Source of the DNA: Diploschistes diacapsis
Taxonomy: Eukaryota
Assembly: GCA_023645945.1 (NCBI GenBank)
Contig: JALAIB010000089.1
Span: 1-34,030 of the forward strand
Direction: 5' to 3'
Length of the DNA: 34,030 nt
Shown: piece after piece, positions 4,506 to 26,340 of the stretch
Position numbering within the stretch: position 1 is the stretch's first letter
How the letters are laid out: every line of letters starts with the position of its first letter
Translations under genes and position numbers: made by a program
Notes under the pieces: model-generated
The model's database searches: none
Told to the model about the DNA's origin: nothing
Seen by the model: only the letters and a program-made list of their open reading frames with translations

Positions 4506-7500
4506 TCAAGTCTTTGTAACCCCACCGCACCAACATCTCCCTTCGCCATCCCGCTCAACCTGCACTAGGACGCTCATCCCCTTCCCTGCCAAATACGCTG
4601 ATGCCCTCTCCCTAACGTCTTCCGAATCTGCGCCTTTACTCGCAATGACATGCATGACTCCCTCCACCTGTGCCTTTTCGCCACTGCTCACCCAGATTCT
4701 AGGCGCGCAAACATTGACGACGCCTCTTAATCCACTGACTCCGGCTAGAGCCTCACGAAGGTCGAATTCGGTCCCTTCCGGAACAACAAGAAGCAGGTTT
4801 TTGGCGCATGAGCGCACCAAAGGTATCGCAGATGCAAAAATAAGGATCGCTATCATGCAAGAAGCAATCGGATCCCAGCCAACCCATCCTGTGAAATGGA
4901 CCAGGATAGTTGATATCACAACAGCTACCGAGCCAAGCGTATCAGCAAGGACATGTAGGAATATCCCCTCCATGTTCTCATGCCCATGACTATGACCATG
5001 ATGGTGACCATGGGCATGGTGATCATGATCGTGGTCGTGGCCGTGCCCATGAGAGTGGCTCTGTGTATGAGAATCGGTTACCATGATTGCAGGAGCTGTG
5101 GGCGTTCCGATTGGAAACGGTGAGGGGGTAGGTGATGGCAGCGGCAGCGCCGAGTTGTGTGAGTCCTTATGAGAATGGCCGTGCTCATGTGAATGATCGT
5201 GATGATGAGTATGATGGCTATTGTGAGACGCTTCGTGGCTGTGAGAATGCTCGTGCCCACCATGATCGTGACTATGACCGTGACCGTGACCATGGCCGTG
5301 GTGTGCATGTCCAAATGCAAACATACCAACAAGATTGACAGCGAGACCGAGAGCACTTACCACTAGGAGCTCACCGAGCCTCTGCATGTGAGAGCCTTCA
5401 ATGAGACGTTCTAGTGCCTCATAAACAATTTCCACGCTGATAAGCCTGGTAAATGTAAGACTTTGATTTGATTGGCGATTGGGTTACTTACATAAGAAAA
5501 ATACCGTTGGCGAAGCCAGCAAGTGTGTCCATTTTCTCGAAGCCATAAGGAAAACGAAGACTGGGCGGTCGTTTGCTCAGCACAGCAGCACCCAAGCCTA
5601 CAAGAAGCGCGGCGCAATCGAAGAACATATGTACACTATCACTGAGCAAGCCTAGCGAGCCAGTTGCCCACCCGTAGAACGTTTGTACAAGCATGAATGC
5701 AAAATTTAGACTGACCGATTCTTAGCCAAAGGACTTAATTCGCAAGTTGCACCAACCTCATAAAGTAAAGAATCCGGCGAGAGTCCTTCTCCAGAAGAAT
5801 ACTGTGTAAAAGCGGCCAGTCTTGGGTCAACCGAAGCAGAGTGGTAGTGAGCCTGGATGTTGTCTCTTCATGTGAGTGAGACTGTGACGAATGAACCTGA
5901 TGATCAGGGCCAGAAGATGAGTTCTTTGTGTCAAAGTTGACGCCAAGCCAGGCAAACACCGTAAGCATGCATTGGAATAGAAGTGGTAGAAGAGGATGCG
6001 AGTCTATAAGCTCCTGGATGGCAATCGACACGCTAAGGCCAGTGGCAAGTGTAAGTCCTTTCCGAGAGGTTAGGGTCCGTGGATTGGCAAAGAGCAATGA
6101 CACTGCACTGGCAATCGCTACAATGCTACCACCGAGTAAGAGTCCTAGCGTCAGCGTCTGGGTCTGCTGAGAGGAAAACACAAAAACGATGAAGCTGATC
6201 ACCGTTGCTATAACTCCGGATGCGACTGTGAGATCAGTATCTCTTGACGTGGCAATCATTGGAGACCTTGCGGTTGCGAGACCCTTGAGATATGGAGTGG
6301 AAGGGTCTTGTGGTGAGGCCATTATAACGGCTGGTTTAGAACTTCGATCCGCCCTAGGAGAATTGATCATCGCAGTTTTCGAAGCCGTAGTAGGGTAAGG
6401 CCAAGGGAGCAGAAGCACAGAGACCCCGAGGGCCAAGTATCCTGATGAAATCTGCAACGGCAGCGAATTGTTTGTTAGATTCAACAGGTCAGCCAGACAT
6501 TGCAATGCCAGAGTTATGACCGTCCATTTCCGGGACACAACCAGTTGACTCCAACTTCCCGGGCGTGAAATCTCTTCGACTTTTGGATTTATAGACATTA
6601 ATTCCGCTGTTATGGCCACCAGGATTCCAATAGCAATCCTTTCTCCTCCTAGTTTACTTGCAGCATAGAATGGAAGACCGATTGAGAGGATACGTCCTAT
6701 GATGCGCCTAGCAGTGCTAACAGATAAAACGGCTTCTGATGAAGGCTTCGCCTCACTCTGCACACTGAACGTCGAGTTTGTGTGGCCAAAAATTTCCCCA
6801 ATGAAACCCACAAGGACGAGCGTAGCGGCAGTCAATGAACAAACACCAAGAAAACTAAGGAACCGAGAGGGGGAGCGTGGTGTGATCACTCCTGTCAGCT
6901 TAGTATTAACGAGTAACTCCACATCATTCCCCCTTTCTGCGCCGAGAGGAGTCAGTTGAGACGTAAGAACAAGAGAGCTCAAGACAAAAGGCAATGGTAT
7001 CAAGATTGAAGTTACAACTCCCGGTGCCCTAGAATTGTATTAGCCGAAGCTGGCAGACCACCTTAACGATGAGATTGCCCTACAGGAGCGTTTGACGATA
7101 TGACACAGCTCCTGGACGAAGACCCAAACCGACCTGGGTATCAGATAAAGTATAGCCATTAGATTTCGAAAATGCCAAACGGCTTTGCGAATCCACTTTC
7201 GAATCCATTTGCGGACCCATGTAGCCGCCCTCTGCCGAATGGTTTGACGTGGACGTTGAGGATCGGTTGGCTGCTGGATATCCGTTGTGCTCCACCATGC
7301 TCTTATTTTGCCTGTGAGATCCGCGAAGGCCATTGATGCTCGTCTTTTGCTGTGAATCGAATGGCGAGTCCAGCGTATATGGAGTCACTCGACTGTCCTG
7401 AACCACAGGAATTCGCTCTGGTGCCGCCTTCCTGTGATGTGAGCGACTTTGCCCATAGCCATTGGGGCCATTAGACTGGCTTGAGTTGCCACCTAAGGCA

Positions 7501-9895: not shown

Positions 9896-11496
9896 ATGAG
9901 AGCCAGGAGAGCCTGCGAAGCTTGTAGGCGCAAAAGACGTTGGGTAACTTTATCTACATCTGATTTTGCAGGATCTTTGCTGAAACAAATGCAAGTGCGA
10001 CAAAGAGTTCCCCAGCTGTGTGCAGTGTTGCAAACTTGGCCACAAATGTCCTGGCTACACAAACTTCCGTACTCCATTTGTCAATCTTGATACTGGTAAC
10101 TTTGAGGGCCACAACACAAGAGAGCTTCTGCGGAAAGCGACTACGGAAGTAAAATCTAACTCTCTCCAGCCTTCCCCTGAAATTACGAAAGTAGCGAATC
10201 GAAGAGCAATAGCAACTAATTCCACCATCCACTCCAATGACTCAAGAGTATCGCATGACAGTCCCTCGCTGAGCGTGTCCGCAACTGACCTAAACGTTGC
10301 TTCCGGTACGGTGTGCTCCGATCCAACCAACGCATTCCTTCTCAATACCACGAATTTTCGTTGTATCTACGAATCATTGTGGAACGTGTTCTGCAATGAG
10401 TACTGCATTACGTCCAATTACTGGCCGTGTGGCTTGGCGCAACTCGCCAACCGTAACGCTGTTTTCGACTTGGCTCTTGTTGCGCTAAGCGCTAAAAGAA
10501 TTTCTTTTACCGGACATCCGGAGTTTCTTCATATGAGCTATGAGGCCTATGGAAAATGTTTATACCTATTTCGTTGTCAGCTAGGACGATTGCGTGGCGA
10601 AAGTAACGCTCTGTGGGCGACGATATCTCTTATCTTCGCTCTGTTCGAAGCCTCGTCGCTGGATCTCGCTGAGTTATTCAAACCTGAGCACGAACCATTT
10701 AAACACCTCAGGGGGGCGGTGTCTCTGATGAAAGAATGCGGACCTCGGCCCTTCGCTTCGTTTGGGTACCATGAAGCTTTCCAAAAGATCCGTGAGAAAG
10801 CGGTACGTTGCGCCTTGCTCTGGTAGTCATTGGCACTAATCTGGGATATAGATTGTCATGTCATTTGTTAGAAACGAAAAGTTGATGTTCTCGGAGCAGG
10901 AATGGCTCAGTGTGCCGTGGCAGATCCAACGGAAAGGGTGGCGTGATCTGCTTTACGATATGGCAGCAGTCCTTTCAAGCATTATATTCGATAGGAAAGA
11001 ATCACATCTATCTACCGAGGTCCACATAAAGCTAGTGCTCAAAATCGATACCCGACTCAAAGTTTGGCAAGAAGCCTGGGTCTTAAGTGCCTTCCCTCAG
11101 GTGCTTGCAGACTGCCAAAACCAATGCTCTTTCCGATCTTGCATCTGCTGTCAGCAGGATGTTGCATCCCTTAGTGGGCACGACCTGTTGCTCCAGGCTG
11201 AATTTTGGGCGCTGCAGCTTCTCATCAGTTGTGAACTTTCGCAGTCATTGAGCGAGGGGGCTCATTTTGCCATTGCAGGTCGTTCAGAAGTCATGACTTT
11301 CGCAACAGAGTATGTGCGGACATCCGCAGCTGCAGATAACTTGACCCAAGCTCTGGCACACTCATGTTTTCAAAGGCGCGGTGACGTGCCAGAGATGATG
11401 ACCGAAGCCAAGTGCCGATCACTGTTGCCCTGCTTGGCTCTCAGAAAGTCTGCAAAATTCAAAACCAGAGAGGGTGTTCTAGCAATTGACAGTTAG
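9896..11496 (+). CDS. Zn(II)2Cys6 binuclear-cluster transcription factor
   Basis: Exons 9896-9943, 9996-10802 and 10852-11496. Splicing gives CEACRRKRRWCDKEFPSCVQCCKLGHKCPGY (C-x2-C-x6-C-x6-C-x2-C-x6-C). A fungal TF regulatory region follows (HLRGAVSLMKECGP; FSEQEWLSVPW). Confidence 0.88.
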
Positions 11497-13898
11497 GACG
11501 GCAGCAGATCGAACCATAGACTAGGCAACACTCATGCGTCGTTGAGAGCTGACGACGCCTTAGAGTGCTTCCACTTAATGACTTACTTTTCTTCCGCATA
11601 GCGAAGGTATAATGTAAGGCTGTCGTTTGACTTGTTTGAAATGCCAAACTTTGCTAAGGTGAACGAAACCTAGAAGACCAGGGGGTGAACCATCACCTAC
11701 CCGATTGAGTAACTCGCTTCGCTAGCGTTGGTGTGCAACGTTGGCGGCATCATTTCTTGGCATGCTGGCGAACTTCTAGCTTTTCAAATCATCGATGCGA
11801 TGTTCGTTACCGAAGTGTTCGTTTGTGGACTGCTCTATACTCCCACTAAAGCTTGAAACCAACTGCAGGTTAAACTAGGGTGCTGTTCTCGATCGCAACC
11901 TTGAAGGCAGTACCTCGTCATAGCCGGCAACAGGCGGCTACCACTATCACAGCAGCTCTCAACCACGACCCCATCAAGCCCCGCGCGTCGCTTGATGGCC
12001 CAACCGCCAACTTTGGACCTCCGCTTGTCTCATTAAGACTACCACTGCTTGCTTAACTGTTCATACTTCCAATCCGATCTTAAAGACCCATGCATACTGG
12101 TCCGCGTCCACAACCTCCTCAGGACAGTGATGCCAAACTCCGGTTCCTAAACACCCAAATCGGCACCACCATGCCGGAAAAGTCACCTTCCACAACCGCC
12201 ACCTGTTCTAACTCCAGGTACTGCACCAGTGAGTCGAGCACCAAGCTACCATTAGGCGGACAAAGCATCGAAATGTAAGAGTTCCGATTTGCGTGAACCG
12301 CACAGCCTCTCCCTCCGAAGGCGTGGCTGCCTAGTACGTCGTGTCAAACCGCCTCCGCATGGCCCTTGATCCCACAACCGCCATGCAAAGGTTCCGCCAT
12401 TCTACGCTCGAGCATTGTCCCGTTCGCCGTGGCCCCCCAGTCCAGCATGAAATTTCCGTTCGGCGTAGGTCTTGTTCGCGCCCAGTTTGCCTCAGCCGGG
12501 AGCAGAGTAGATGGCCCCATTGGATGAAGATGCCGTATTTGGCGTCGTTGTATCATCGAGACTCCCGTGGGCATAGATGCTTTCGTTCGTAGGTAGGTTC
12601 GTAAGGGATAACGCCATATATAGCATTGAAAATGTAAGAGATTTCGACACATGTTCCAAATATTCTGACGGTTGAATCGCTTATGGTCACCTGCAAGATG
12701 CTGCTTGTATTAACAGCAACCTGGATCCTGGCTTAATCACTTGAACGAAGGCTGTTGGTACACCAGGTATGAACGTAGAGAGGCTAGAGACCTCCATAGT
12801 CACTCTGACGCCCCAAGACACGCTGGAGACGGTGCATACGCTTGCGTCAAGGAACACTGAAGGGATAAAACATATCTCGCGTATGCGATTATCATCACAA
12901 TAACTACCACGACAGTCATCGATATCACAATGCGAACAGCAGAGTGCAGAAGCTTCCAGGAAGCTCATTAGATAGATAAGTACCATCAGAACCACCTCGT
13001 GTTTTAAATACTTTTACCTCGCGCTATGTCCAGAAGAAACCGGTGAGCCGGAAGCTTCCCTCCTGCCCTTATGGGGATAGAACTTAGCGAAGAGGATGTA
13101 GGAAGTTGAGGATAGCTCGAAAACACCAAGAAGATCCATCTGAGACGATGATCATGTCCACTAAGGGTAGGCACATTTCGAGCCTGGCCAAACCTCCCTT
13201 TCGAAGATAAGTGGGCGCTTACACACTACTCTGTGGGCCTCAAGTTATCGTTAGGCATCCAGCATTACTCAATGAAAGGACCTCACGCACGTGATAGGAA
13301 AGGAGAAGAGCTTCACGTTTCGGATATCCGACGAGACATGAAAGGAATACTTTAAGTGAAACGAGATAGCCTCTACGTAGCAGAAATTGACATTCCAAAT
13401 TTGTAATGACGGTTTGCGAGTGTCTTTACTTGAAGCATCTCCTCTAAAACCCATTCTTGTCTCTTTCTTCTTCTTTTCCTTTTGGACGTGGAGGATGCTG
13501 TTGGTCTATCTACACAACATGTCAGCGATTCAACGCATTAGCTACCAGGCTGCCGCTGCAGATTTTGGGATACCTAAAGCATTAGGCTTTCGTTCTCTTG
13601 GATGGATTAGCACACAGCGCGACATTTAATTCTTGAAGCCACGACACGAATTCGACACGGAGCCACAAAGTATGGATACGTATGGCACTTAGGTAGCGCT
13701 TGGTTGCCTAATATCTCATAATGTATAGTGGTGGTAGCTTGCCGGTTACTGCACGTACATACATACATACAACGCGCGCCTGTAAATACCGGGACTCTGA
13801 GTTACTGCCATATTTATTTAACGGATTCTGCCAGCTGGATATCATTCTCTTCAATACCAGAAACATACCTCTGTGCCCATTGTTCTTCTCAGCCTACA

Positions 13899-15506
13899 AT
13901 GTCTCCATCTGCTGAAAGGCCGCTCCAGGATAAGAGCGTGGCACAGCTTGTCCATATGCTCAATGAAAAATGCCTGGAGAAAAACAGGCTTGGTCCATAT
14001 GGGGGGTCCCACCAATACGACGAGGGCAAGGAAATGCCATCCACCTTCCTGAAAGAGCCAGCTAGCGAAAGCGCCATTGAGAAGCTCCAGCGTGAAGTCA
14101 GAGCTGAACCTCACAACTTTATCCATGGCCTGCCACACGATTATGTTGAGTTCTTACGCACAACTGATGGCATCTACCGTGATGACAGTGACGCTGACAG
14201 CACTGAATTATTCCGGCCTATTTCTAAGGCCAAATTGGAGGAAGACGACACTTGCTTAGAGATGCTGCGGGATGATCTGTCCGACTTGGACGACCAAATC
14301 ACATGGCCAGTGGAGTCCTGGGCGCTTCAGCTTGGAGCGGGTGGTGACGAGGGCCTGCACTACTTGATGGCTCCGGCAGCCACGAAGCAGATAATTGGGG
14401 GTCTGCGGGAGGCTTACAACAAAGCAATTAAGAAAAAGAAAAAGAAAATTAAACAGTGGGCGACAGAGACAGGTGGTAGTCTAAAACAGTTACTCCGAAC
14501 GAAATACCTCATCGTAAGGATGTATCATTGGGCTGCCAAGGTAGAACTGTTCTCAAGCTTCAAACACTTGTTAGAAGACTTCGTTGAAGGCATGGACGAA
14601 AGGCAGAAAGAAATTGACAGCTCAGAAGACTACGAAAACGGTGAGGGAATGGCAGTAGATAATGGTGAACAGGGCCACGAGGAACCGGCAAACAGCCATC
14701 AAGCGAGCGACGATCGCTGCAAGACAGTTTTAGAAGCCAACTCCGACGTGCTCGAGGGCCTAACATTTTTCAGGGCCGGCACCCTGGTCTCTTTGACCCA
14801 GAAAACCTTCAAAACCACCGTCGAGCAACACGGGGGATCGGTCATCATCAATCTCGAGAAAGCGGACTACATTGTCCTCGGTGCGAGGGGCGGGCCCAAG
14901 ACGCTCGACATCATCAAAGACAAGGGCCTAACCACCATTTCCGAAGAAAGATTCTACCAACTACTCGAGGGTAATCAGCCAACTACTGGGACACAGAGCA
15001 ATCTCGCCAAAACAACTACTACAGCCATTCCCTTAAAGAGCGGAGGCACACGTAAGACGCAACTAAAAGGCAAGCCGGACGCGTTCAAGGGCATGGCAAT
15101 GCTATTTGCGGGGACGCTACACTCAGTAACCTTGGAGACGGCGGAGAAAACGGCCGAGGCACATGGCGCGAAGATCAGCAAGAAGTTAACAGACGCGGAT
15201 TTGGTCGTCCTCGGGGCAAGGCCGGGGCCGAAGAGGCTGAAGGAGATCCAGGAAAATGGATTGCAGACGTGCTCGGAGGATGAGTTCCTAGAATTGCTTA
15301 AGAACGGTGCTAATGGTGAGGAAGAGGGGAAGGAGGAGGAAGAGGGGAAGGAGGAGGAAGAGGGGAAGGAGGAGGAGGAGGAGGAGGAAGAGGAGAAGGA
15401 GGAGGAAGAGGAGAAGGAGCAGAAAAGACCTGCTCACAGGAAGAGAAGCGCAAGCACCACAAGCCTGGATAACACTAGGACAAGGAAAGCAAAGAAAATT
15501 GGCTGA
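13899..15506 (+). CDS. Intronless protein with an N-terminal SMI1/KNR4 (SUKH)-like domain, two RFC1-type BRCT domains, an acidic tract and a basic NLS-like tail
   Basis: First ATG is at 13899 within the 592-codon ORF. PASESAIEKLQREV...LPHDYVEFLRTTDG fits SMI1/KNR4. LEGLTFFRAGTL...HGG...ADYIVLGARGGPKTL...ISEERFYQLL and FKGMAMLFAGTL...HGA...ADLVVLGARPGPKRL...SEDEFLELL fit BRCT. Confidence 0.8.
   Translation: MSPSAERPLQDKSVAQLVHMLNEKCLEKNRLGPYGGSHQYDEGKEMPSTFLKEPASESAIEKLQREVRAEPHNFIHGLPHDYVEFLRTTDGIYRDDSDADSTELFRPISKAKLEEDDTCLEMLRDDLSDLDDQITWPVESWALQLGAGGDEGLHYLMAPAATKQIIGGLREAYNKAIKKKKKKIKQWATETGGSLKQLLRTKYLIVRMYHWAAKVELFSSFKHLLEDFVEGMDERQKEIDSSEDYENGEGMAVDNGEQGHEEPANSHQASDDRCKTVLEANSDVLEGLTFFRAGTLVSLTQKTFKTTVEQHGGSVIINLEKADYIVLGARGGPKTLDIIKDKGLTTISEERFYQLLEGNQPTTGTQSNLAKTTTTAIPLKSGGTRKTQLKGKPDAFKGMAMLFAGTLHSVTLETAEKTAEAHGAKISKKLTDADLVVLGARPGPKRLKEIQENGLQTCSEDEFLELLKNGANGEEEGKEEEEGKEEEEGKEEEEEEEEEKEEEEEKEQKRPAHRKRSASTTSLDNTRTRKAKKIG
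15318..15420 (+). repeat. GAG/GAA-rich coding low-complexity repeat (EEEGKE units, poly-Glu)
   Basis: Direct 18-bp repeats GAGGAAGAGGGGAAGGAG followed by (GAG)n. Confidence 0.9.
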
Positions 15507-16986: not shown

Positions 16987-17741
16987 TTAGGCGGCGAAGT
17001 CCCGGGAAACCATGTCACGCGCTGCCATATCGCGAGCGGCAACGTCGCGGGCTGCAAAGTCGCGAGCAGCTAGGTGACGGGCAGCGATGTCGCGGTGAGG
17101 AAGGTCGCGAGCGACCATATCACGAGAGGCGAGATCACGGGGGATCGTGTCACGGGCAGCCATATCACGAGCAGCAACATCGCGGGAGGCAACATCGCGG
17201 GCAGCCATATCACGAGCAGCAACATCGCGGGAGGCAACATCGCGGGCGGCAACATCGCGGGCGGCAACATCGCGGGCGGCAACATCGCGGGCGGCAACAT
17301 CGCGGGCGGCAACATCGCGGGCGGCAACATCGCGGGAGGCGAGATCGCGAGCAGCCAAGTCACGGGTTGCCATATCACGAGAGGCGAGGTCGCGAGAAGC
17401 AAGGTCGCGGGAAGCGCTGTCTCCGGACGCAAGATCGCGAGCAGCGAGGTCCCTGGATGCTAGATCACGGGTCGCCATATCGCGCAGAGCAACATCCCTC
17501 GAAGCGAAGTCACGAGCAGCAAGATCGCGAGCGGTCAAGTCCCCAGATGCTAGGTCCCGGGAAGCCATGTCGCGGGAGGCCATGTCTCTAGCAGCAACAT
17601 CCCGGCCGGCAACATCTCGCTACCTCCAGGTTAGCTTTTTGGTACCTCTCAGTGACCAGGGTTCTGTTGACAAACCTTAGTTGGGGCGGCGATGGCTGCG
17701 CTCGCACCAGCGACGACTACCAATGCCTGGAGGAAATGCAT
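16987..17741 (-). CDS. Secreted tandem-repeat precursor peptide (Kex2-processed repeat protein; candidate RiPP precursor), 232 aa with 42 D-hydrophobic-x-x-R units
   Basis: Exon 1, 17741-17676, encodes [22 protein letters not shown] (signal peptide). A 56-nt intron 17675-17620 has GTTTGT...GCTAAC...TAG. Exon 2, 17619-16987, encodes [16 protein letters not shown]...[13 protein letters not shown]. D and R are conserved across varied synonymous codons. The gene is adjacent to a DUF3328 gene. Confidence 0.88.
16990..17616. repeat. 15-bp-unit coding minisatellite (~42 units)
   Basis: Period-15 array. It has six identical copies of GCGGGCGGCAACATC at 17242-17331 and a 45-bp duplication at 17152-17196/17197-17241 with one mismatch. 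Confidence 0.95.
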
Positions 17742-18874
17742 ATTGGAAGTTGAGATAGCCTTCGAAAATCTAATGGAATTGCGTTGATGGCCTGAAGGAG
17801 TCTGAATCGAGAGTCAGTCTGATGTGAGAAGCTGAGCCGTGCCTGATGAAAGAGATTGGGGGAAGTTTGAGACCTTCTTATACTCGACGAACGCCCCCAA
17901 AGTCCTACATTCTAATAGATGCCAAGGCCTTATCGTTTCTCCCTCCTAAGACAAGCGAGTCTGATCCTGCTCCCTCTAGCTATAGCCTTTCTTGGTCTAC
18001 CGGGGTTGAAATTGATCATCCCGTACTTTCCAAGTCAACCGGTTGCCACCACACCACACGCGTGTTCTGACTAAACGGCCATGCAGGGCCCATGAATCTT
18101 ACAAACCGGAAATTCAGCACCCAACGGAGAGTATTCCCTTACATACTAAGGGCTGGGCATCAATCAAGTTTGGATCTATCTAAAGGAGGTGTATGAGATG
18201 GCATGCTCCATATCCACTTTCTTTGCGGAACCCTAAAACAAGCGTCTGATCAACGCAACCTATCGCAACACCCAACGAGCACTTTGGAGATGATATTGGA
18301 TGCTGGATCATCCAAATTCTGCTTTGATCAACAGGTTATTACTGCACACTGTATCCTTTTTGGCAACCAGCGCCCTTGAAGAAAGAATAATCAACAGATC
18401 CAATCAGCTCGAACACTCATAGTCTTGCGGGGTTTAGCCCCAACAGCTTGCAGAGCTAAGAATTATAATGTATAGGCTCTGTAAACAATCCGCGGAAGTA
18501 GTTTCGTGTTGACGAGGGAGCTTCAGGCTGCGTTACCTACTAATAAATTTACAACAAACAGTAGTGTGCACACTGCAGGGTCTGGTACACCACGGCTACT
18601 GGTTGAAGCGGTCAACAACTTTTAGTACAGAAAGGTACATTTGCAGCGCTGTATTTACAAGCCTATTGGGGGTCTTGTTTGCATTGCTCTGTTCTCCTCA
18701 AGTGCGAATCTTGATAATTCTATTTTTTCTTCTCGGTGATACCAAAAGGCTGTAGGTATTCGGGCCTCTTTCTCCTATATTTCACTTCATTCAAGGACAA
18801 TACAAGCTATCCGTTTAACATTTGACATAGTGACAATAATAAAGAAAGAAGTCTTTTGTTCAAGGAAAACTAGT

Positions 18875-20110
18875 ATGGCTCCTGCATGGATGAAGTCCTC
18901 TCCTTCGTCGCCCAGGTACTCCAAGCTGGACCCAGAAGGAACATTCCTTCCAGCGGACGAGGAGAGAGCAGGCTACCTCACATCAGAGACGGGGAAAGCT
19001 TCAAGGTGGTCACGGCCGGCTTTCTTGAGAACTGTCCCTTGGCTTTTTACGGCGGGCTTCGCCGCCCTTTACCTATCCACCTTTGCGACTCGGACAGCAG
19101 AAAGTCAATGGGGTACTTTCAGCGGCGGGTTGAAGACCGAGTTCCGTAAGCAGAGTTTGTTGTTACATACGTGCATTCCTAATGATGGTCTTTCAGAGCC
19201 CGCCATGCCGCACATCGAGCTTGAACTGCGGCGCTTTACAAGCGGTGTCCTCTTCACTCCTGCCGGAGAACCCTACCGTACGAAGTACCCGGGCAAGCCC
19301 GAGTACGTAGGGCCACCCAGTCCAGAGGTAGACGCCAACTGGGAGAAACTTATTGGTTGTAAGTATCCCGTCAATATATGGCTTTGTTCCAGTCAAGCCG
19401 CGTCTAATCATTGTCACAAACCTCCAGCGCGCTACTTCAGCGTGACGGACGAAGAAGCAGAGCAGATCGCCGACAAGGAGAACAAGAAGACCTGGGATAA
19501 GCACGCAGACTGGGGGTTTCTGAGCGGGTATACTACCCCAGTTATTCACATCGCTTCCACTAGCTGACCATGCAAAGCTTCGACGTCCTGCATTCACTTC
19601 ACTGCGTGGTACGAGCCATAACCTCTCTTCTCTTTATTCTCAAACTACAGAACGCTGACCCAGAAGAACAGAACATGGTCCGCAAAGGCCTCGACGGTGA
19701 CTACTACTACCCCGAGAAGGACCTGTACGAGCACCACTCGCGCAACCATCTAGGTACTTCTGCTATCCCGTTCCCTCATCTCCTGAATGTACCTCGCTTA
19801 CTCTTCTGCCACGCGTACAGATCACTGCCTGGACCACCTCCGCCAGTCCACCATGTGCCACGGAGACCTCACGCCTCTGACGACGGTATACTGGCCACAG
19901 ATAGACGCCTCGTTCGCGCATAGCGAGCAGTGGCACGTCTGTCGTAAATATGAGCCCATCCGCGAGTACACCACCAGCCGTTTCAATGGTAGCGAGGCAG
20001 TAGTCCCGCTGAGCTTCCAGCGGCTGACAGCCGGCCATGGCCAGGGCAGGCTTGCCGAGGGTGGGCACTGTCCGGGTTGCTTGCCGGACATGCCTGGCGC
20101 TGCAAAGTAG
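18875..20110 (+). CDS. DUF3328 / UstYa-family (HxxHC) membrane-anchored oxidase
   Basis: Exons 18875-19145, 19197-19358, 19428-19527, 19578-19608, 19672-19753 and 19821-20110. TM segment (VPWLFTAGFAALYLSTF), then YVGPPSPEVDANWEKL, FDVLHSLHCVNMVRK, NHLDHCLDHLRQSTMCHGDLTP and HVCRKYEPI. These are the hallmark motifs, including both HxxHC. Confidence 0.95.
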
Positions 20111-20404
20111 GAGTGATGGAGGGGTTCGGGGATCGGGCGACAGGGGTGTGCAGATTTCCAAGGAGGGTGGAGATTGGAGAAGAAAGAGGGGTGAGGTAGA
20201 AAATCATCAGCCAGCCAATTGTGCATGTACGAGTAAGCTAGGACCTCACAAACAACCCAAAGAAAAGGAAGCGAGAATGATCAAAACTGTCTCGATTCAA
20301 AGCATACCATACATACTTCTCCGCGGCCTAGGGTATATTGTGTCCGTCCGCGCTCGGGCGCATAATGAGCCTTCTGCAGGCTGCACCCCAACGCAGAGGG
20401 CCCC

Positions 20405-20429
20405 ATGCAATGCAATGCAATGCAATGCA
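20405..20429. repeat. (ATGCA)n pentanucleotide microsatellite
   Basis: atgcaatgcaatgcaatgcaatgca is visible directly. Confidence 0.8.
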
Positions 20430-22635
20430 GGAGGTCCGTTGCGATCCCTTTTCCATTACCAGGCCCCACCTCCCGGTAACCTCTGTGCGTTGGGACGTCC
20501 AGCGGCATTCAGAATGGGGGTCGCCCTCCTGGCGCATTTCCCCGCGTTTCCTGTTTCATGCGGGGGGGCGGCCTTCTATGCAAGACAGATAACGTACGCA
20601 AAAACTTCGGCACAGCTTTGCATATATGGGCTTAAGAGGTTGGCTACAGAGTTTCCCCACCGCTCTTTGGAAGACCGGGAACGGGGATGCCAGAAGAGGG
20701 CGAATGAGGTTGGGGATTACCTCTGCGTGTCCGTCCGATAGGGTGTGAGAAGAACTATATCCCAAAGAGGTAAACGAAGGACTTTCCGTTGCGCCCTTGG
20801 ATGGAGGTACCTTTTTGCCTATTTGGGTATAGTCTCTCAAGAGGTGGTGCGCAACCTTTTCTGCCCCACAGATTGGGGGCCAAAGTGGGTGCCCATCTAC
20901 TGTTGTTCGCTAGATGTAGGAAGCAAGCGTAGGTGGCTTGAAGTAGTAGGTAGGATAGGTGAGTGCCTGGCCCTTTAGTTACAAGGAATATTGCTTATAA
21001 GCTGCATGTTCGAGCCAATTAGCATCTATGGATACTATTTTCCATAGGTATTAGCGCGCTGGCACCTACCCCCTCAACGAAGAGTCACACCATAGCCTCC
21101 AAATAGGCTGAATCTGACCCGTTATAACAAGCAGATGCAAGCTCACAATCGTGAGCTGGTAACGAGCCATGAAGGCGATGAAGTTACGCTCATTAATTAG
21201 TCCCATGGCGTACACCTGGCACTGCTTGGCCGTTAGTCTCATGACTTTACCTCTGCAGTTGCTTTTGCATAATTGCACCATCATGGCCTAGGCTGATAGA
21301 AGTATGATCGAACAGGCTTGAGATGCACGATGCAGACAGATCCTTACGGGCCGTTCCGCTAAGATTTCTAAATTCAACGTGACCATCTACGCACAAGGTA
21401 TGATACCAACATCCCAGCGCTGTCCGGAGTTTAACATGCTCAGTACTCAGCAGCAATTGATACCATTGGCTCCTTGCGGAGATTCATTTACATGTAGGGT
21501 CGCAGCGGAACAATATACTCTGTATGTCAATAGTTCCAGTTTCGCCTCAGCTGGTGTCGATTATCGCTTCTCCATTCAGCTCGTCAACCTTATTCGGTGT
21601 CCCTCTGGATGACCTACACTGCATGAGCACTCTATCCGGAATGGTTTGTACGCCGTACGGAGTACAAGCAGGGCCTTTGAAGTACATCCCAGCAGAAGTA
21701 ACAACCTGGAGACCCCTTTATGCAATATCCTTCCGGCCTCCTTTCGTTATTGACTTTGTGCAGTTAGAAGGTTTTAAAGGCCAGTTAGTGAGAAAAGCAA
21801 GCAGAAAGCATTGGTGAAAGTTTACGTCTTTTGCTTCGTATTAATGCCACCAATAACAAGCCATGATACTTACCACGCCACCACTTAGAACCTTACACAA
21901 AAGCTACTACATAGCATCAGGCCTCGTGTGGAGTGTCTCACATCTGGCGTACCTTTACTTGACACATACTACTGGCTCAGCGTTCCCCTTGTTAAGGTAA
22001 ACAATAAACCAAGCAGCGAAACCGTTTCCTGTACCATATCAATCCGACCTCGGCATCTCTGGGCCAGTAATTATCCTCACGTCTTGACTAGTCATATTGG
22101 GATTTGCTCACCGTTAGCAGTGCGTTCAAATGAGTGCGAATGCAAAACTTCTCCAATGTAACCCTGCCAGCAAACCTTGCAAGCCTGCTCCTGCTCCTGA
22201 AGGGATGGCATATTTGGCTTTGCTAGCGGAGCTTCCCAGTCTACTTAGCGGCAAGGCGGACTATCTTCCGAGCAAGCCACCGATGTAGCCATCATACCGA
22301 ACAACTCCTGCATGTCAGCCCTTGGCCGCCAGCATGCTCAGCACCTGACCGCTTGTGCAAGTCATGGGAGGGGGGAATTGATCTGCGAAGTACGGGGTCG
22401 TTCCATCAACCGCATAGCAGGTCGTGATCGCCATAAACTCCAGAATCATTCACTTGCTGTGAAGAATTAGCAGTTATGTGGAAAGGCAAGAACGTACGTC
22501 TGGCAGACAGCAGACAGGAGTAGTTTCAGGGGATTCGAGTCACACAGTAGGCGAACCCTCCTGAGGTTCCCCTATTCACCATTGTACTGTTATTCGATAT
22601 GATCCGTAGCTGCTTCTACTTCCCACGATATTAAT

Positions 22636-24524
22636 ATGGCACTGGCATTGAGGCAGCGTTGGCATCGACGTGCCTTAGTAGGTGAAGCTTCGCATTTTGG
22701 CCCTTCTACGCTCTTGTCCATACCATGCCGCGGACAGCTGCTCCTTTACTTTGTCTCTCGCGTCTGCGACATGCTCCCTCACACAGTCACAGCTACTCTT
22801 CTGCCACTCCAATTGAAGTCTCTCGACGGATACTGGGGCTCATCCAGCACTGTAAACCTTGACATCTCAACACAAGCCGGTATTGTGGTGGGCTGCTTCA
22901 CTATTGCCGAATCCCTGACAGCTATGCTCTGGATCCAGGCTGCCGACAATGTTGGACGAAAGCCGATTCTTGTAATGGCACTGCTCGGGAATGCACTTAG
23001 TTGCTTAGGTGTGGGCTTCTCGAGAAGCTGGATAGAGATGGCTATATGGAGGATGCTTGGAGGATGCGTAAGCCCAAATCCGGTAATTGTGTAAGTCAAC
23101 CAAAGGTTTCCAGAGACTCTCCCTCTCTGTTGCAGCTGAGGTACTAAAGATTGCTCGCAGCGGGACAATGGTAGCTGAGAAGGTTCCAGACAAAAGGTTC
23201 GTAGACCAAAGATGGCGGAGCTACTGAACCCAGATCTGAACAAGCTTCGTAGATGGCTTCCGCTCGCTTATTTACTCATGCCCACGAGTTTCAATTTGGC
23301 GGCTCTTGTTGGTCCAAGTATGTCAAGTCTGGTTTATTGAGTCATTTCCCCGTCGCTCCCAGGGTTGGCTAATAGAGGACCGGTAAACCAGTTGTCGGCG
23401 GTTTCTTAGGCGGCTTTTCTGAGAATTGGTGGAAAAAAGGCCCGCAGTTGGTACTTTATGCGGAGAGCAGCATGCACTGGTTGTCGCGTTTCCCGTATGC
23501 CCTACCGTATATTGCTGTCAGCACACTCCTCGTAATCATTGCAATTGTGGTGCAAAAGTGTGTTGATGAGGTTCGTGCTGGAAGCTCCAACCTGGGAATG
23601 GCTTGAATAACATGCTTAGACTTTGCCGGCAAAGCTTGCCAGAGAAACAAGAGATCACATAGAAAAGAAGATGTTCTTGGAATATGAAAGGACCGGGGGA
23701 GGCGAGTTCCACGAAGATCTTGAGCCAGCGCGCGAAGGCTCGTCGTCTACAAGGTTCGAGGACGACGATGACGACTTCACGACCTCCACAGACACGGCAT
23801 TTCAGAAGCCTCCGCTAAGACTCCTATTCACACGGATGTTTCTGCTCACCTTTCTTACCCAGATCTTCTTTGACCTCCACACTTCGTAAGTACATCTGCC
23901 CAGTACAGGAGTGTTCATACTGATACATGTTCCAGCGCCTTCAACAATCTCTGGTCCCTCTTTCTCTCAGCTCCACGATCCTCACACGAGGCAACAATCG
24001 TATCACCTCTCTCCAGCGGCGGTCTGGGAATGTCTCTCAAAAATATGGGCTATGCGAGCGCTCTACTCGGAGTCGTGGGTCTAGTGCTCCAAGGCTGCCT
24101 TTACCCCCCAGTTCAAGGACGCTTGGGAACATTGCGCTGTTATCAGGCATTCTGTCTTTTTTATGCGGTGGCATACTTCCTGACGCCCGTCCTAAATTTC
24201 ATTCCTCAGTCGATCGCGGCCCTTGAAGCTCTGACCTGGGCAGGAATAGGCGTGATAGCGTTCCTGATTACCATTGGCCGAACGTTTACATTACCAGCCA
24301 TCCCAGTACTGCTGAACAACTGTGCTACACACCCGTCGCGCATCAGCACCGTGCACGGCATGGGCGTCATGGTCTCTGGTGTTTCAAGGACGGTTGGACC
24401 CGTCTTCGGCGGCTTTTTGTATGGGGCAGGTCTGAAGCTTGGAATGGCAAACATGGCATGGGTGGGAATTGGAACATTGGCGATGCTGGGCTGGTTGGCT
24501 TCGTGTCGTTTGCAACGTCACTAA
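22636..24524 (+). CDS. MFS transporter, drug/H+ antiporter-like (YCR023C/ZIFL-type)
   Basis: Multi-exon model that splices without stops: QAGIVVGCFTIAESLTAMLWIQAADNVGRKPIL (motif A), WRMLGG, GTMVAE, SFNLAALVGPIVGG, RFPYALP, SAFNNLWSLFL, GGLGMS, LLNNCATHPSRISTVHG...RTVGPVFGG. The start codon is uncertain. Confidence 0.85.
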
Positions 24525-24854
24525 ACCGAAGTGATACAACGTTGTACTTGAACAAGGGGCTAACCGTTAGACAAACAGTGGTGGAAACTCAGCTGACGTC
24601 AGCGGAGCGAGTCGGAATATCTCCGGATATAACTCGGGCTAAACTCAGTATGTGAGAGATGCTACCATCGATTACCCTATTATTGATGTGACTGTAGGAC
24701 GGCGGACATGGTTTTGCCTCCGTGCTCCACCGCGCATCCTACACTCGCTATTATTCTGGCAAGCTATCTTGCCTCTCTTCTATCCACTTCTTGCCTTGCG
24801 GAAAAATTATCCCTTGACCGCCGCCATCTTCCAGCGTCCTCTGTTCTCACCACC

Positions 24855-26340
24855 ATGAATGCTGAATGCCAACCTCTCGCTCCTCTGCCGCTTGGCCTGT
24901 CCCGTCGACCTCCCACCGCTTCCAGCACCCTTCAAGTTTCTACCTCCTTAGAAGGTGGAACCCCTGAATTGAACGGTTCCGAAGAAACGGCGCTTAGTAA
25001 CGGAACTAGCAGTACCGACGACCTGCCTCCGGTAACTAGACGCCGGCAGTGGACCGTCTTACTCTCGGCGTTCCTCACAATCTGCATTACCATTGGTTTC
25101 AATCAGTCGTACGGTGTATTTCAGGCCGCATATTCTTCGCCAACGGACACCATATTAGTCCCGGACCAAATCAGCAATGGGGCTCTTATTGCCTTTGTGG
25201 GAACCTTGGGTGCGGGTCTCACGTGGGCCGGCAGTATCTTTGTCAACCCTCTTATGACCAGAGTGCCAAGCATGCGCTACATCACCACGCCAGGAGTTCT
25301 GTTGATGAGCCTAGGATTCGGGTTGGCAGGCCAGGCGACACAGGTAAGTTCATAGACGGCTAGATATGCTCGCTTTGGTTTTGCAATCCATCAAGTATGG
25401 CTCGCAACCTTACTCGTTACAGGCTTGGCACCTTCTGCTCACTCAAGGCTTATTGTATGGAATCGGCTCCTCCATGCTCTACTTTCCAATTCTAGCTGTT
25501 GTCCCGGAGTACTTCGCCAGTCATCGGGGTGCCGCCATGGGGTTTGTACTTTCGGGTGCTGGCATTGGAGCCGTTGTTTTCTCTTTGGTGATTCGGGCTT
25601 TGATTACCGCCATTGGAGCACGTTGGGCTCTTAGGTTCCTTGCCTTCCTCAACCTTTTGATATCCCTGCCCATCGCCCTGACGGCTCCTTCTCCTCGTTT
25701 TACCAGCAAACGGCCAACACATATCGACCTTCAGCTGGCGCTCAAACCGGCCTTCTTGTTGTCGGTAGGAGCCGCTTTGCTTCAAAGCAGCGGCAACCTC
25801 GTTCCTCTTACCTTCTTATCCGAATACAGCATCGCATTAGGATATTCTGCAAACTTTGGGGCCACTCTCATTGCTATCAACAATGGCGTTAACTCCGTCA
25901 GCCGAGTTCTAACCGGATTCGCCGGCGACGCATTTGGCCGCCAGAATGTCCTCATATTGACCATTTTGGGCAGCGCCGTTGCCGTGTCTGGTCTCTGGCT
26001 GGGGAGCGTGTCCAACGGGAGCCAGACGCTTTGGATTCTCTTCGTAGTATTCTATGGCGTGTGGGCTGGTGGATACAACTCGCTCTTCCCAACCACCATC
26101 GCCGAGGTGTTTGGCATTCATGCTTACGCCAGTGTGAATGGGTTTGTCTATTTTGTCCGTGGTCTAGGGTCCTTTTTCGGGAGTCCCGTAGCAGGCACTA
26201 TTCTCGGGGAAAATACCAGGAAGAATTATCTTGACGTTGTCTATTTTGACTCCGCGCTTTTGTTTGGCGCGTCTCTCTGTGTCATTGGAGTGCGGTATTT
26301 CGATGCGGTAGAGAGGGGTCGCTGGCAAGGCAAAGCTTAG
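24855..26340 (+). CDS. MFS transporter, monocarboxylate-porter (MCT/Mch) family
   Basis: Exons 24855-25343 and 25423-26340. Motifs QWTVLLSAFL...GFNQSYGVFQ, WHLLLTQGLLYGIGSSMLYFP, EYFASHRGAAMGFVLSGAGIG and GFAGDAFGRQN. Confidence 0.92.

Follow-up and report, generated by a model that had tools for sequence, protein, structure and literature searches.

A 42-unit repeat-protein gene head-to-head with a UstYa/DUF3328 gene in Diploschistes diacapsis: a candidate minimal RiPP-like pair

The divergent gene pair

We analysed a 34,030-nucleotide stretch of DNA from Diploschistes diacapsis (positions 1 to 34,030 of contig JALAIB010000089.1, forward strand, assembly GCA_023645945.1; hereafter the window), in which a gene for a tandem-repeat protein and a gene for a protein of the UstYa/DUF3328 family lie head-to-head and together span ~3.1 kb (16987-20110; Table 1). 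A reading made from the letters of the DNA, without database searches (the sequence-only reading), had described such a pair with a 1133-bp gap between an intact DUF3328 gene and a secretory-type gene of 42 spacerless units of 5 amino acids (aa), with single Arg, no Tyr or Trp and 3 Phe; all of these features were found, and the composition count bears out the numbers. A promoter common to both genes in the gap is possible. We ask here how far this pair can be read as a minimal pathway for peptides that are made on the ribosome and modified after translation (RiPPs).

The minus-strand frame at 16987-17619 is open over 210 codons, and its array proper (16990-17619) consists of exactly 42 uninterrupted fifteen-base units, the stop codon following directly after the last one; Tandem Repeats Finder reports periods of 15, 30, 45 and 90 across 17024-17586. 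A 56-nt intron joins a short leader in frame to this array, giving a spliced protein of 232 aa. Along the unit, Arg is present in 40/42 copies, Asp in 41/42, a hydrophobic residue in 40/42 (V14, L13, M9, F3 and I1), Ala in 37/42 and Ala, Ser or Thr at the last position in 38/42, so that the array holds 40 Arg, 41 Asp and 3 Phe; the protein contains no Tyr, Trp, Cys, Asn or Glu. The leader, which ends in Lys, reaches a top 15-residue Kyte-Doolittle window of 2.12 at residues 3-17 and has two small-x-small sites (read by eye), features from which it is predicted to be signal-type and to direct the protein to the endoplasmic reticulum (ER). The sole dibasic site in the 232 residues is K22-R23, at the junction of leader and array. 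Two Pfam matches were set aside: HC2, which scored 66.7 bits on the array, is a low-complexity artefact (the family comprises Lys/Ala-rich bacterial nucleoid proteins), and Vps4_C, at 22.4 bits, had no stretch that passed. The repeat gene is probably missing from the deposited annotation and the public protein set, since nothing that matches the array came out of a search that retrieved a neighbouring NCBI protein. Gene callers may routinely overlook short repetitive precursors such as this.

Because several frames are open across the array, we compared the 42 units with one another. In the frame that joins the leader, mean entropy at codon positions 1, 2 and 3 is 0.93, 0.24 and 1.46, respectively; the 34 distinct DNA units encode 19 distinct peptides, Arg is encoded by both of its codon families (CGN 37, AGR 3), and Leu by both CTN and TTG. 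Synonymous changes account for a share of 0.50 of the codon differences between distinct units in this minus-strand frame, against 0.03-0.13 in four of the other frames; a plus-strand frame interrupted by stop codons reaches 0.46. Such a pattern of variation would be expected if selection acts on the peptide R-D-hydrophobic-A-small.

We then compared the locus with contigs of four DNA sequencing runs (X1-X4, of which X3 is a rock metagenome and X2-X4 are near-identical to the window). Among these runs the locus is carried only by near-identical relatives (about 97-99%); in X2 and X3, coverage at about 97-99% identity extends over the flanks of the array and the leader exon as well as over the region between the genes and the UstYa gene, and in both of them the two genes are kept and the splice signals of the repeat gene are intact. 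The relatives carry at least 9 substitutions in the coding sequence, and those listed comprise 3 synonymous changes, 3 V/I exchanges and 3 changes that restore the unit consensus where the window itself is off-consensus (H204D, G88R and G27A). In the leader there is one conservative change, I17V, in X2 and X3. Among the substitutions listed, at least 4 fall in the intron in X2 (17650, 17651, 17661 and 17666), none of them touching the donor, the branch site or the acceptor, while the leader exon (66 nt) has one. Together with the codon statistics, the leader exon and the intron, these substitutions support the sequence-only reading in its claim of a genuine coding gene of secretory type, and we consider it very probable that the repeat gene is a real protein-coding gene.

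The number of units should be read with some care. No contig of the compared runs spans the central run of six identical units, and in X1, which is possibly the source of the window, single-copy pieces within the array have a depth of 47-55 compared with 96-101 in the flanks, while a piece with 31-mers present in five copies in the window (array region 17173-17337) has a depth of 373.6. These depths suggest two array variants of unlike length in the source sample; given the half depth in the array and the unbridged central units, the count of 42 may differ between variants.

The UstYa/DUF3328 gene could be assembled as a six-exon model of 311 aa, with five GT..AG introns of 51, 69, 50, 63 and 67 nt that each contain a branch-site-like motif. 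When the 110 stop-to-stop open reading frames (ORFs) of at least 85 aa in the window were scanned against Pfam (E up to 1e-4), this was the only DUF3328 gene on the contig. The profile check that the sequence-only reading had proposed gave two pieces over the curated PF11807 cut-off of 25, namely the ORF of exons 1-3 (26.3 bits, profile positions 8-94) and exon 6 (52.1 bits, positions 166-219 of 220). The spliced model contains both HxxHC motifs (H-S-L-H-C at residue 183 and H-L-D-H-C at residue 214, the latter assembled over the exon 5/6 junction), and the gene is in this sense intact, as had been claimed. The deposited model (P0003; LQ340_001179, 318 aa) retains intron 4, skips the first 35 codons of exon 6 and lacks the second HxxHC motif; we regard it as wrong, since Pfam matches exon 6. 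Behind an N-terminus that looks disordered, the protein has a hydrophobic segment (about residues 49-72), whose best 19-residue Kyte-Doolittle mean of 1.31 lies under the usual threshold (no window above 1.6).

Table 1. Features of the gene pair and of the adjoining major facilitator superfamily (MFS) transporter genes
Feature	Position	Strand	Basis
Repeat gene, exon 2: 42 tandem 15-nt units, R-D-[V/L/M/F/I]-A-[A/S/T], plus TAA (16987-16989)	16987-17619	-	ORF, Tandem Repeats Finder, unit alignment
Repeat gene, intron: 56 nt, GTTTGT donor, GCTAAC branch site, TAG acceptor	17620-17675	-	Spliced model
Repeat gene, exon 1: start codon and 22-residue leader	17676-17741	-	Sequence reading and spliced model
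Divergent intergenic region, possible shared promoter	17742-18874	.	1133 bp between both start codons; covered in X2 and X3
UstYa/DUF3328 gene, six exons, 311 aa	18875-20110	+	Splice model and Pfam PF11807
UstYa exons	18875-19145, 19197-19358, 19428-19527, 19578-19608, 19672-19753, 19821-20110	+	Splice model
MFS transporter gene 1, multi-exon, limits approximate	22603-24524	+	MFS_1 38.6 bits against cut-off 33.4 on 22603-23094; further exons by eye
MFS transporter gene 2	24687-26340	+	MFS_1 86.8 bits on 25348-26340, the stronger match of the two

Predicted processing and structure of the array

The kexin Kex2 is described as accepting almost exclusively Arg at P1, preferring Lys at P2 while being variable there, making no contact at P3, where Asp is unfavourable, and taking Leu or another aliphatic residue at P4, which is summarised as an 'expanded motif (LxxR)'; the five best alternatives at P2 are Arg, Thr, Pro, Glu and also Ile (PMC8528282). 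Read as D-hydrophobic-A-small-R, a unit of the array has its Arg at P1, preceded by Ala, Ser or Thr in P2 and by Ala in P3, while P4 is taken by an aliphatic residue. There are 37 overlapping [LVIMF]-x-x-R matches (11 of them L-x-x-R) plus one K-R, and P3 is Ala in 37/42 units and never Asp. To judge by these residues, the units agree with the expanded Kex2 motif (Arg at P1, aliphatic P4, no Asp at P3) and, since 37 of them fit aliphatic-x-x-Arg, each unit is itself a predicted cleavage site; the array can be read as minimal kexin sites strung together without spacers, a reading that is new in this analysis. Cut after every Arg, it would yield D-V-A-A-R ten times, D-L-A-S-R five times, D-L-A-A-R and D-M-A-A-R three times each, 16 rarer forms and a lone Arg following the leader.

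The fit to the expanded motif removes the chief difficulty that the sequence-only reading had seen in calling this a Kex2-type precursor, namely the single Arg and the lack of dibasic sites between units; that claim stands as far as the motif goes and is weakened by the residues at P2, which are poor. The lack of Tyr, which had been counted as an oddity, turns out to be less odd, as only 65.6% of the DUF3328-accompanied Kex2-processed repeat proteins (KEPs) have Tyr in their repeats (PMC7329392).

In the pathway that we envisage, the leader would take the repeat protein into the ER, and a Golgi kexin of Kex2 type would cut past K22-R23 and past the Arg of every aliphatic-x-x-Arg unit, freeing about 40 pentapeptides that a carboxypeptidase would trim to tetrapeptides. 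The UstYa/DUF3328 protein would be a membrane-anchored, lumen-facing, two-copper, oxygen-dependent enzyme that oxidises unactivated side-chain C-H bonds of the units (by hydroxylation, desaturation or cross-linking), either before or after cutting, and the products would exit by secretion.

The enzyme's part in this scheme is modelled by CctR, a DUF3328 protein that hydroxylates C(sp3)-H positions as an O2-dependent, binuclear-copper enzyme anchored in the membrane on the lumenal side, in which HxxHC(x)nHxxHC forms the binuclear copper centre and a membrane helix spans residues 38-59; it is located in Golgi, endosome and vacuole membranes (PMC12435403). These are the membranes where kexin acts, so an enzyme of this type would share a compartment with kexin. 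Likened to CctR by features alone, our UstYa protein has the same HxxHC(x)nHxxHC arrangement (n = 26 here), a disordered-looking N-terminus followed by a hydrophobic segment in roughly the position of the CctR membrane helix, and C-terminal cysteines; CctR, in contrast, acts on a non-ribosomal cyclic peptide within a non-ribosomal peptide synthetase (NRPS) cluster (PMC12435403), and there is no NRPS here.

Left uncut, the array is predicted to form one long helix, a rod of ~30 nm. AlphaFold2, run on the single sequence, gives helices at 2-64 and 68-209 with a mean predicted local distance difference test (pLDDT) score of 85.7, and 4 of 5 models score above 65; the sole helix break coincides with the unit that has Gly in place of Arg. 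In the unit, Asp stands four residues ahead of the next Arg, and the array is almost charge-neutral (40 Arg to 41 Asp). An Asp(i)-Arg(i+4) spacing allows stabilising salt bridges and is used in designed alanine-based helical peptides and linkers. Alanine-rich low-complexity sequence is readily modelled as helix, and we therefore treat the model as weak evidence. Among known structures, the closest in kind are alanine-based salt-bridged helices and single alpha-helix (SAH) domains, which combine Glu with either Lys or Arg and occur inside cells or as designs. The array resembles them in its five-residue period, its acidic residue four before a basic one, its high Ala content and its predicted uninterrupted helix, and differs from them in using Asp and Arg only, in standing behind a leader of secretory type and in carrying a hydrophobic residue per unit. 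It also shares a five-residue period, with Asp followed by a hydrophobic residue, with bacterial-type pentapeptide repeats (PF00805). PF00805 and related Pfam families gave no match on the array at E up to 0.01, the model is helical and not a beta-solenoid, and the residue two before the hydrophobic one is Arg rather than a small inward-facing residue; we rejected the array as a pentapeptide-repeat protein on these grounds.

Relatives, known systems and competing explanations

A word-indexed protein search with the array let 1 of 412 candidates pass, P0001, which is unrelated and was rejected as a homologue (a 346-aa tetratricopeptide repeat (TPR)/Sel1-like protein with a short run of similar units). 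A HMMER search of 1.84 billion representatives (E up to 0.001) gave 2372 matches; the best 150 of these were sorted by R-D-x-x-x-R-D count, the N-termini of the top 45 were viewed and 15 proteins were read whole, and none of those inspected within the best 150 consisted of a secretory leader followed by the array alone. One of them, P0055, has a leader-like N-terminus, but only a short L-A-P-R-D run and a large unrelated domain, and the other matches inspected are unrelated low-complexity R-D-x-x-x runs in larger or unrelated proteins. In metagenome contigs, 399 pattern matches reduced to 11 loci with runs of ~2-14 units in unrelated ORFs or frames, and no UstYa context was noticed among them. 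For the UstYa protein, the query with the N-terminal ORF returned 2 of 298 candidates and that with exon 6 (longer proteins) 1 of 56, in each case only the window's own products. Five unit pentamers and the term 'Lecanoromycetes' had 0 occurrences in 3 supplement text files of PMC7329392, which are perhaps incomplete. Lack of relatives is usual for the class, since 2560 of 7878 KEPs are without homologues (PMC7329392).

As a separate observation, short R-D-V/M-A-A/S runs occur in mostly bacterial-looking proteins, including the TPR/Sel1-like protein above, a large helicase-like ORF and a DnaJ-tailed membrane protein (P0001; L003 10001-10297; L001 10001-10252). Expansions of a 15-bp repeat have evidently reached this motif repeatedly and independently.

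By analogy, the locus is most like a DUF3328-accompanied KEP in minimal layout, with one DUF3328 gene as in the asperipin-2a pathway (PMC7329392). With the ustiloxin-type KEPs that DUF3328 genes accompany (Umemura 2020, PMC7329392), it shares a signal-type leader, an array whose units end in a kexin P1 Arg, an adjoining DUF3328/UstYa gene, the status of an orphan protein and a lack of Tyr, as in about one third of them. By the operational definition of that survey, a KEP has an ER signal peptide and three or more tandem repeats, each no shorter than 8 aa, lying between dibasic sites (KR, KK, RK or RR; PMC7329392), whereas the units here have 5 aa, no dibasic sites stand between them (K-R occurs only at the leader), and there is no spacer or recognition sequence, the unit being the cleavage motif, in 42 copies without an aromatic or His-His feature. 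From the dikaritin clusters (ustiloxin, phomopsin, asperipin-2a) the locus has the double-HxxHC UstYa enzyme beside a repeated precursor of secreted type, with a transporter nearby, and, as in the asperipin-2a pathway, a single DUF3328 gene (PMC7329392). It differs from them in having no tyrosinase, methyltransferase or peptidase, in an MFS gene that lies 2.5 kb off with no recognisable gene between, and in the lack of any Tyr or Trp in 232 residues, and so of any Tyr for the known ether cross-links; the older five-gene definition of a dikaritin cluster, which includes a tyrosinase, a methyltransferase and multiple DUF3328 genes (PMC12048977), does not describe it. Effectors with a Kex2-processed pro-domain (K2PP; LxxR) are alike in their P1 Arg, aliphatic P4, variable P2 and a P3 that is not Asp, and differ in that one site removes one pro-domain from a folded effector, compared with ~40 consecutive sites here (PMC8528282).

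The reading that we prefer, and hold tentatively, is that the two genes are linked and that the repeat protein is cleaved and modified in a RiPP-like small-peptide pathway served by a divergent minimal tailoring pair; the locus is a good lead and not a demonstrated system. Given a real repeat gene, a link of some kind between the two genes appears rather probable. It is argued by analogy, from adjacency, from the published enrichment of DUF3328 genes beside secreted repeat precursors and from a shared location in the secretory pathway. Across 1461 strains with 9399 DUF3328 genes, 31.8% of these genes have a KEP gene no more than 15 genes away, most often in the adjacent position, and secreted tandem-repeat proteins make up 69,264 of 14.49 million fungal proteins (about 0.5%; PMC7329392), so an unrelated gene of this kind would stand beside a given DUF3328 gene ~1% of the time; by this comparison true precursor partners would be frequent relative to chance neighbours. 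There is also no rival substrate gene on the contig, as neither an NRPS nor any other biosynthetic enzyme (polyketide synthase, cytochrome P450, tyrosinase, methyltransferase, peptidase) was found among the ORFs scanned. Several points nevertheless weigh against a cleaved and modified product. The repeat protein fails the operational KEP definition in unit length and in lacking dibasic sites between units, and the characterised DUF3328 partners in the literature cited here have longer units; P2 is Ala or Ser in 36/42 units, outside the five best alternatives, with the listed Thr in only 2/42, and a 5-residue unit has no space for a recognition sequence of its own. Among the matches inspected in the protein and metagenome searches there was no repeat protein of like architecture, and the protein searches with UstYa retrieved the window's own products only; the pairing is seen only in relatives so nearly identical that their synteny is uninformative. 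Among the ORFs scanned in the window there is no gene for a tyrosinase, a methyltransferase, a peptidase or a further DUF3328 protein, cluster-free stand-alone UstYa-type genes are reported to be widespread in Lecanoromycetes (PMC12048977), and in the two lichen RiPP clans examined in PMC12048977 no repeated precursor was found. The continuous helix is predicted with confidence and, if it forms in vivo, would be more in keeping with a structural protein than with a substrate of proteases. As for the sequence-only reading, which had proposed a minimal RiPP cluster of a different class or an enzyme that modifies a secreted repeat protein, its gene pair is present as described, while nothing beyond adjacency ties the genes together. 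The more specific proposal of a new class of ribosomal peptide, in which ~40 head-to-tail kexin sites are motif and core at once and a lone two-copper DUF3328 enzyme acts on aliphatic or Asp C-H bonds, and not on an aromatic ring, to give oxidised D-V-A-A-type tetrapeptides, we regard as less likely than not.

The first of the rival explanations is a pair of unlinked neighbours, in which an orphan secreted protein stays whole as a ~210-residue alanine-rich helical rod with Asp(i)-Arg(i+4) salt bridges, possibly with a role in extracellular matrix, hyphal surface or hydration, and the UstYa gene is one of the many stand-alone copies found in Lecanoromycetes, its enzyme acting on a product encoded elsewhere. 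The predicted helices, the regular Asp-to-Arg spacing with near-neutral charge, the reported prevalence of stand-alone UstYa-type genes in Lecanoromycetes, the two lichen RiPP clans in which no repeated precursor was found (PMC12048977) and the lack of accessory biosynthetic genes in the window all agree with this explanation, which we consider conceivable and somewhat doubtful. It requires a chance adjacency that the frequencies in PMC7329392 make rare, and its helix model is without alignment support; moreover, a kexin substrate requires just such a strict five-residue recurrence of Arg with an aliphatic P4, whereas a salt-bridged helix would tolerate Lys or Glu, and the array has neither. 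If the genes are linked and the protein is nevertheless secreted whole, UstYa might decorate its side chains (e.g. by hydroxylation of Asp or aliphatic residues) to give a modified extracellular repeat protein. Adjacency and compartment speak for this as they do for the cleaved pathway, and the helix prediction and the poor P2 residues (PMC8528282) oppose efficient cleavage, but the DUF3328 substrates in PMC7329392 and PMC12435403 are small ribosomal or non-ribosomal peptides, none of them protein-sized, and a K-R stands directly ahead of the array, whose units all end in Arg; we think it improbable. About equally improbable, and if anything a little more so, is that there is no working gene at all and that a minisatellite of 15 bp, open by chance in several frames, lies downstream of an ATG, a hydrophobic stretch and intron-like signals that are fortuitous. 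Frames are indeed open on both strands over the array, the six central units are identical in DNA, as after a recent expansion, no matching product is present in the protein collection, R-D-x-x-x runs arise independently in many unrelated proteins, and the half-depth pieces suggest length variants in the source sample. Against this, only in the leader-joined minus-strand frame do the three-base periodicity, the synonymous share and the two codon families for Arg make sense, substitutions in the relatives restore the consensus and leave the splice signals untouched, and the last unit is followed at once by the stop codon.

The cleaved and modified pathway is of interest as a lead because a precursor of this type evades current mining rules and because lichen UstYa genes are without known substrates. 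That UstYa/DUF3328 enzymes are binuclear copper oxygenases was shown only recently (PMC12435403), their substrates are established in just a handful of pathways, and a 2025 survey of 111 lichen-fungus genomes reports many UstYa-type signature genes (PMC12048977). The repeat gene falls outside what the large KEP survey was set to find, namely dibasic sites and units no shorter than 8 aa (PMC7329392). If it does encode a true substrate, such precursors would be missed systematically, and the rules for mining fungal RiPPs would have to be widened to take in short monobasic aliphatic-x-x-Arg units and unannotated ORFs of 15-nt periodicity. Should the new-class proposal hold, this would be the densest multi-core precursor known, its enzyme would carry out a DUF3328 reaction on a ribosomal peptide without aromatics, and a lichen fungus would have a first candidate for a repeated precursor next to a UstYa gene. 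Even with the two genes unlinked, this desiccation-tolerant symbiotic fungus would still have an unusual secreted protein, a helical repeat of Asp, Arg and Ala.

Neighbouring genes and minor observations

Two MFS_1 genes follow the UstYa gene in tandem on the plus strand. The sequence-only reading had named an MFS transporter as the next recognisable gene, which the MFS_1 match confirms (with two genes rather than one), and had counted it as part of the system, which gains little support: none of the 14 ORFs of at least 60 aa in the intervening 2.5 kb (20111-22600) reaches a Pfam cut-off, and MFS_1 genes show no enrichment near KEP genes (0.7% of all counts, mean distance 7.74 genes; PMC7329392). 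Since they are not concentrated near precursor genes, we gave the transporter almost no weight, and the membership of MFS gene 1 in the system is doubtful. An (ATGCA)5 microsatellite lies at 20405-20429, between the UstYa gene and MFS gene 1.

The Pfam families found by the scan of ORFs in the window are TFIIIC (two), Cation_efflux, Glycos_transf_1 and Glyco_trans_1_4, BRCT, HC2, UstYa, MFS_1, Rav1p_C and Reticulon. Five ORF pieces match the RAVE subunit Rav1, and a group-1 glycosyltransferase and a cation-efflux protein are among the genes; outside the locus, the remainder of the 34-kb contig is housekeeping. Rfam gave 0 matches within the window. Long open frames of 710, 434, 280 and 214 aa without a Pfam family at E up to 1e-4 (2-2131 minus; 5735-7039 minus; 9984-11496 plus) may be lineage-specific or poorly conserved genes. 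The large BRCT-domain ORF (13722-15506) has at its C-terminal end an acidic tail rich in Glu, Lys and Gly, which a GAGGAG-type repeat at 15318-15419 encodes.

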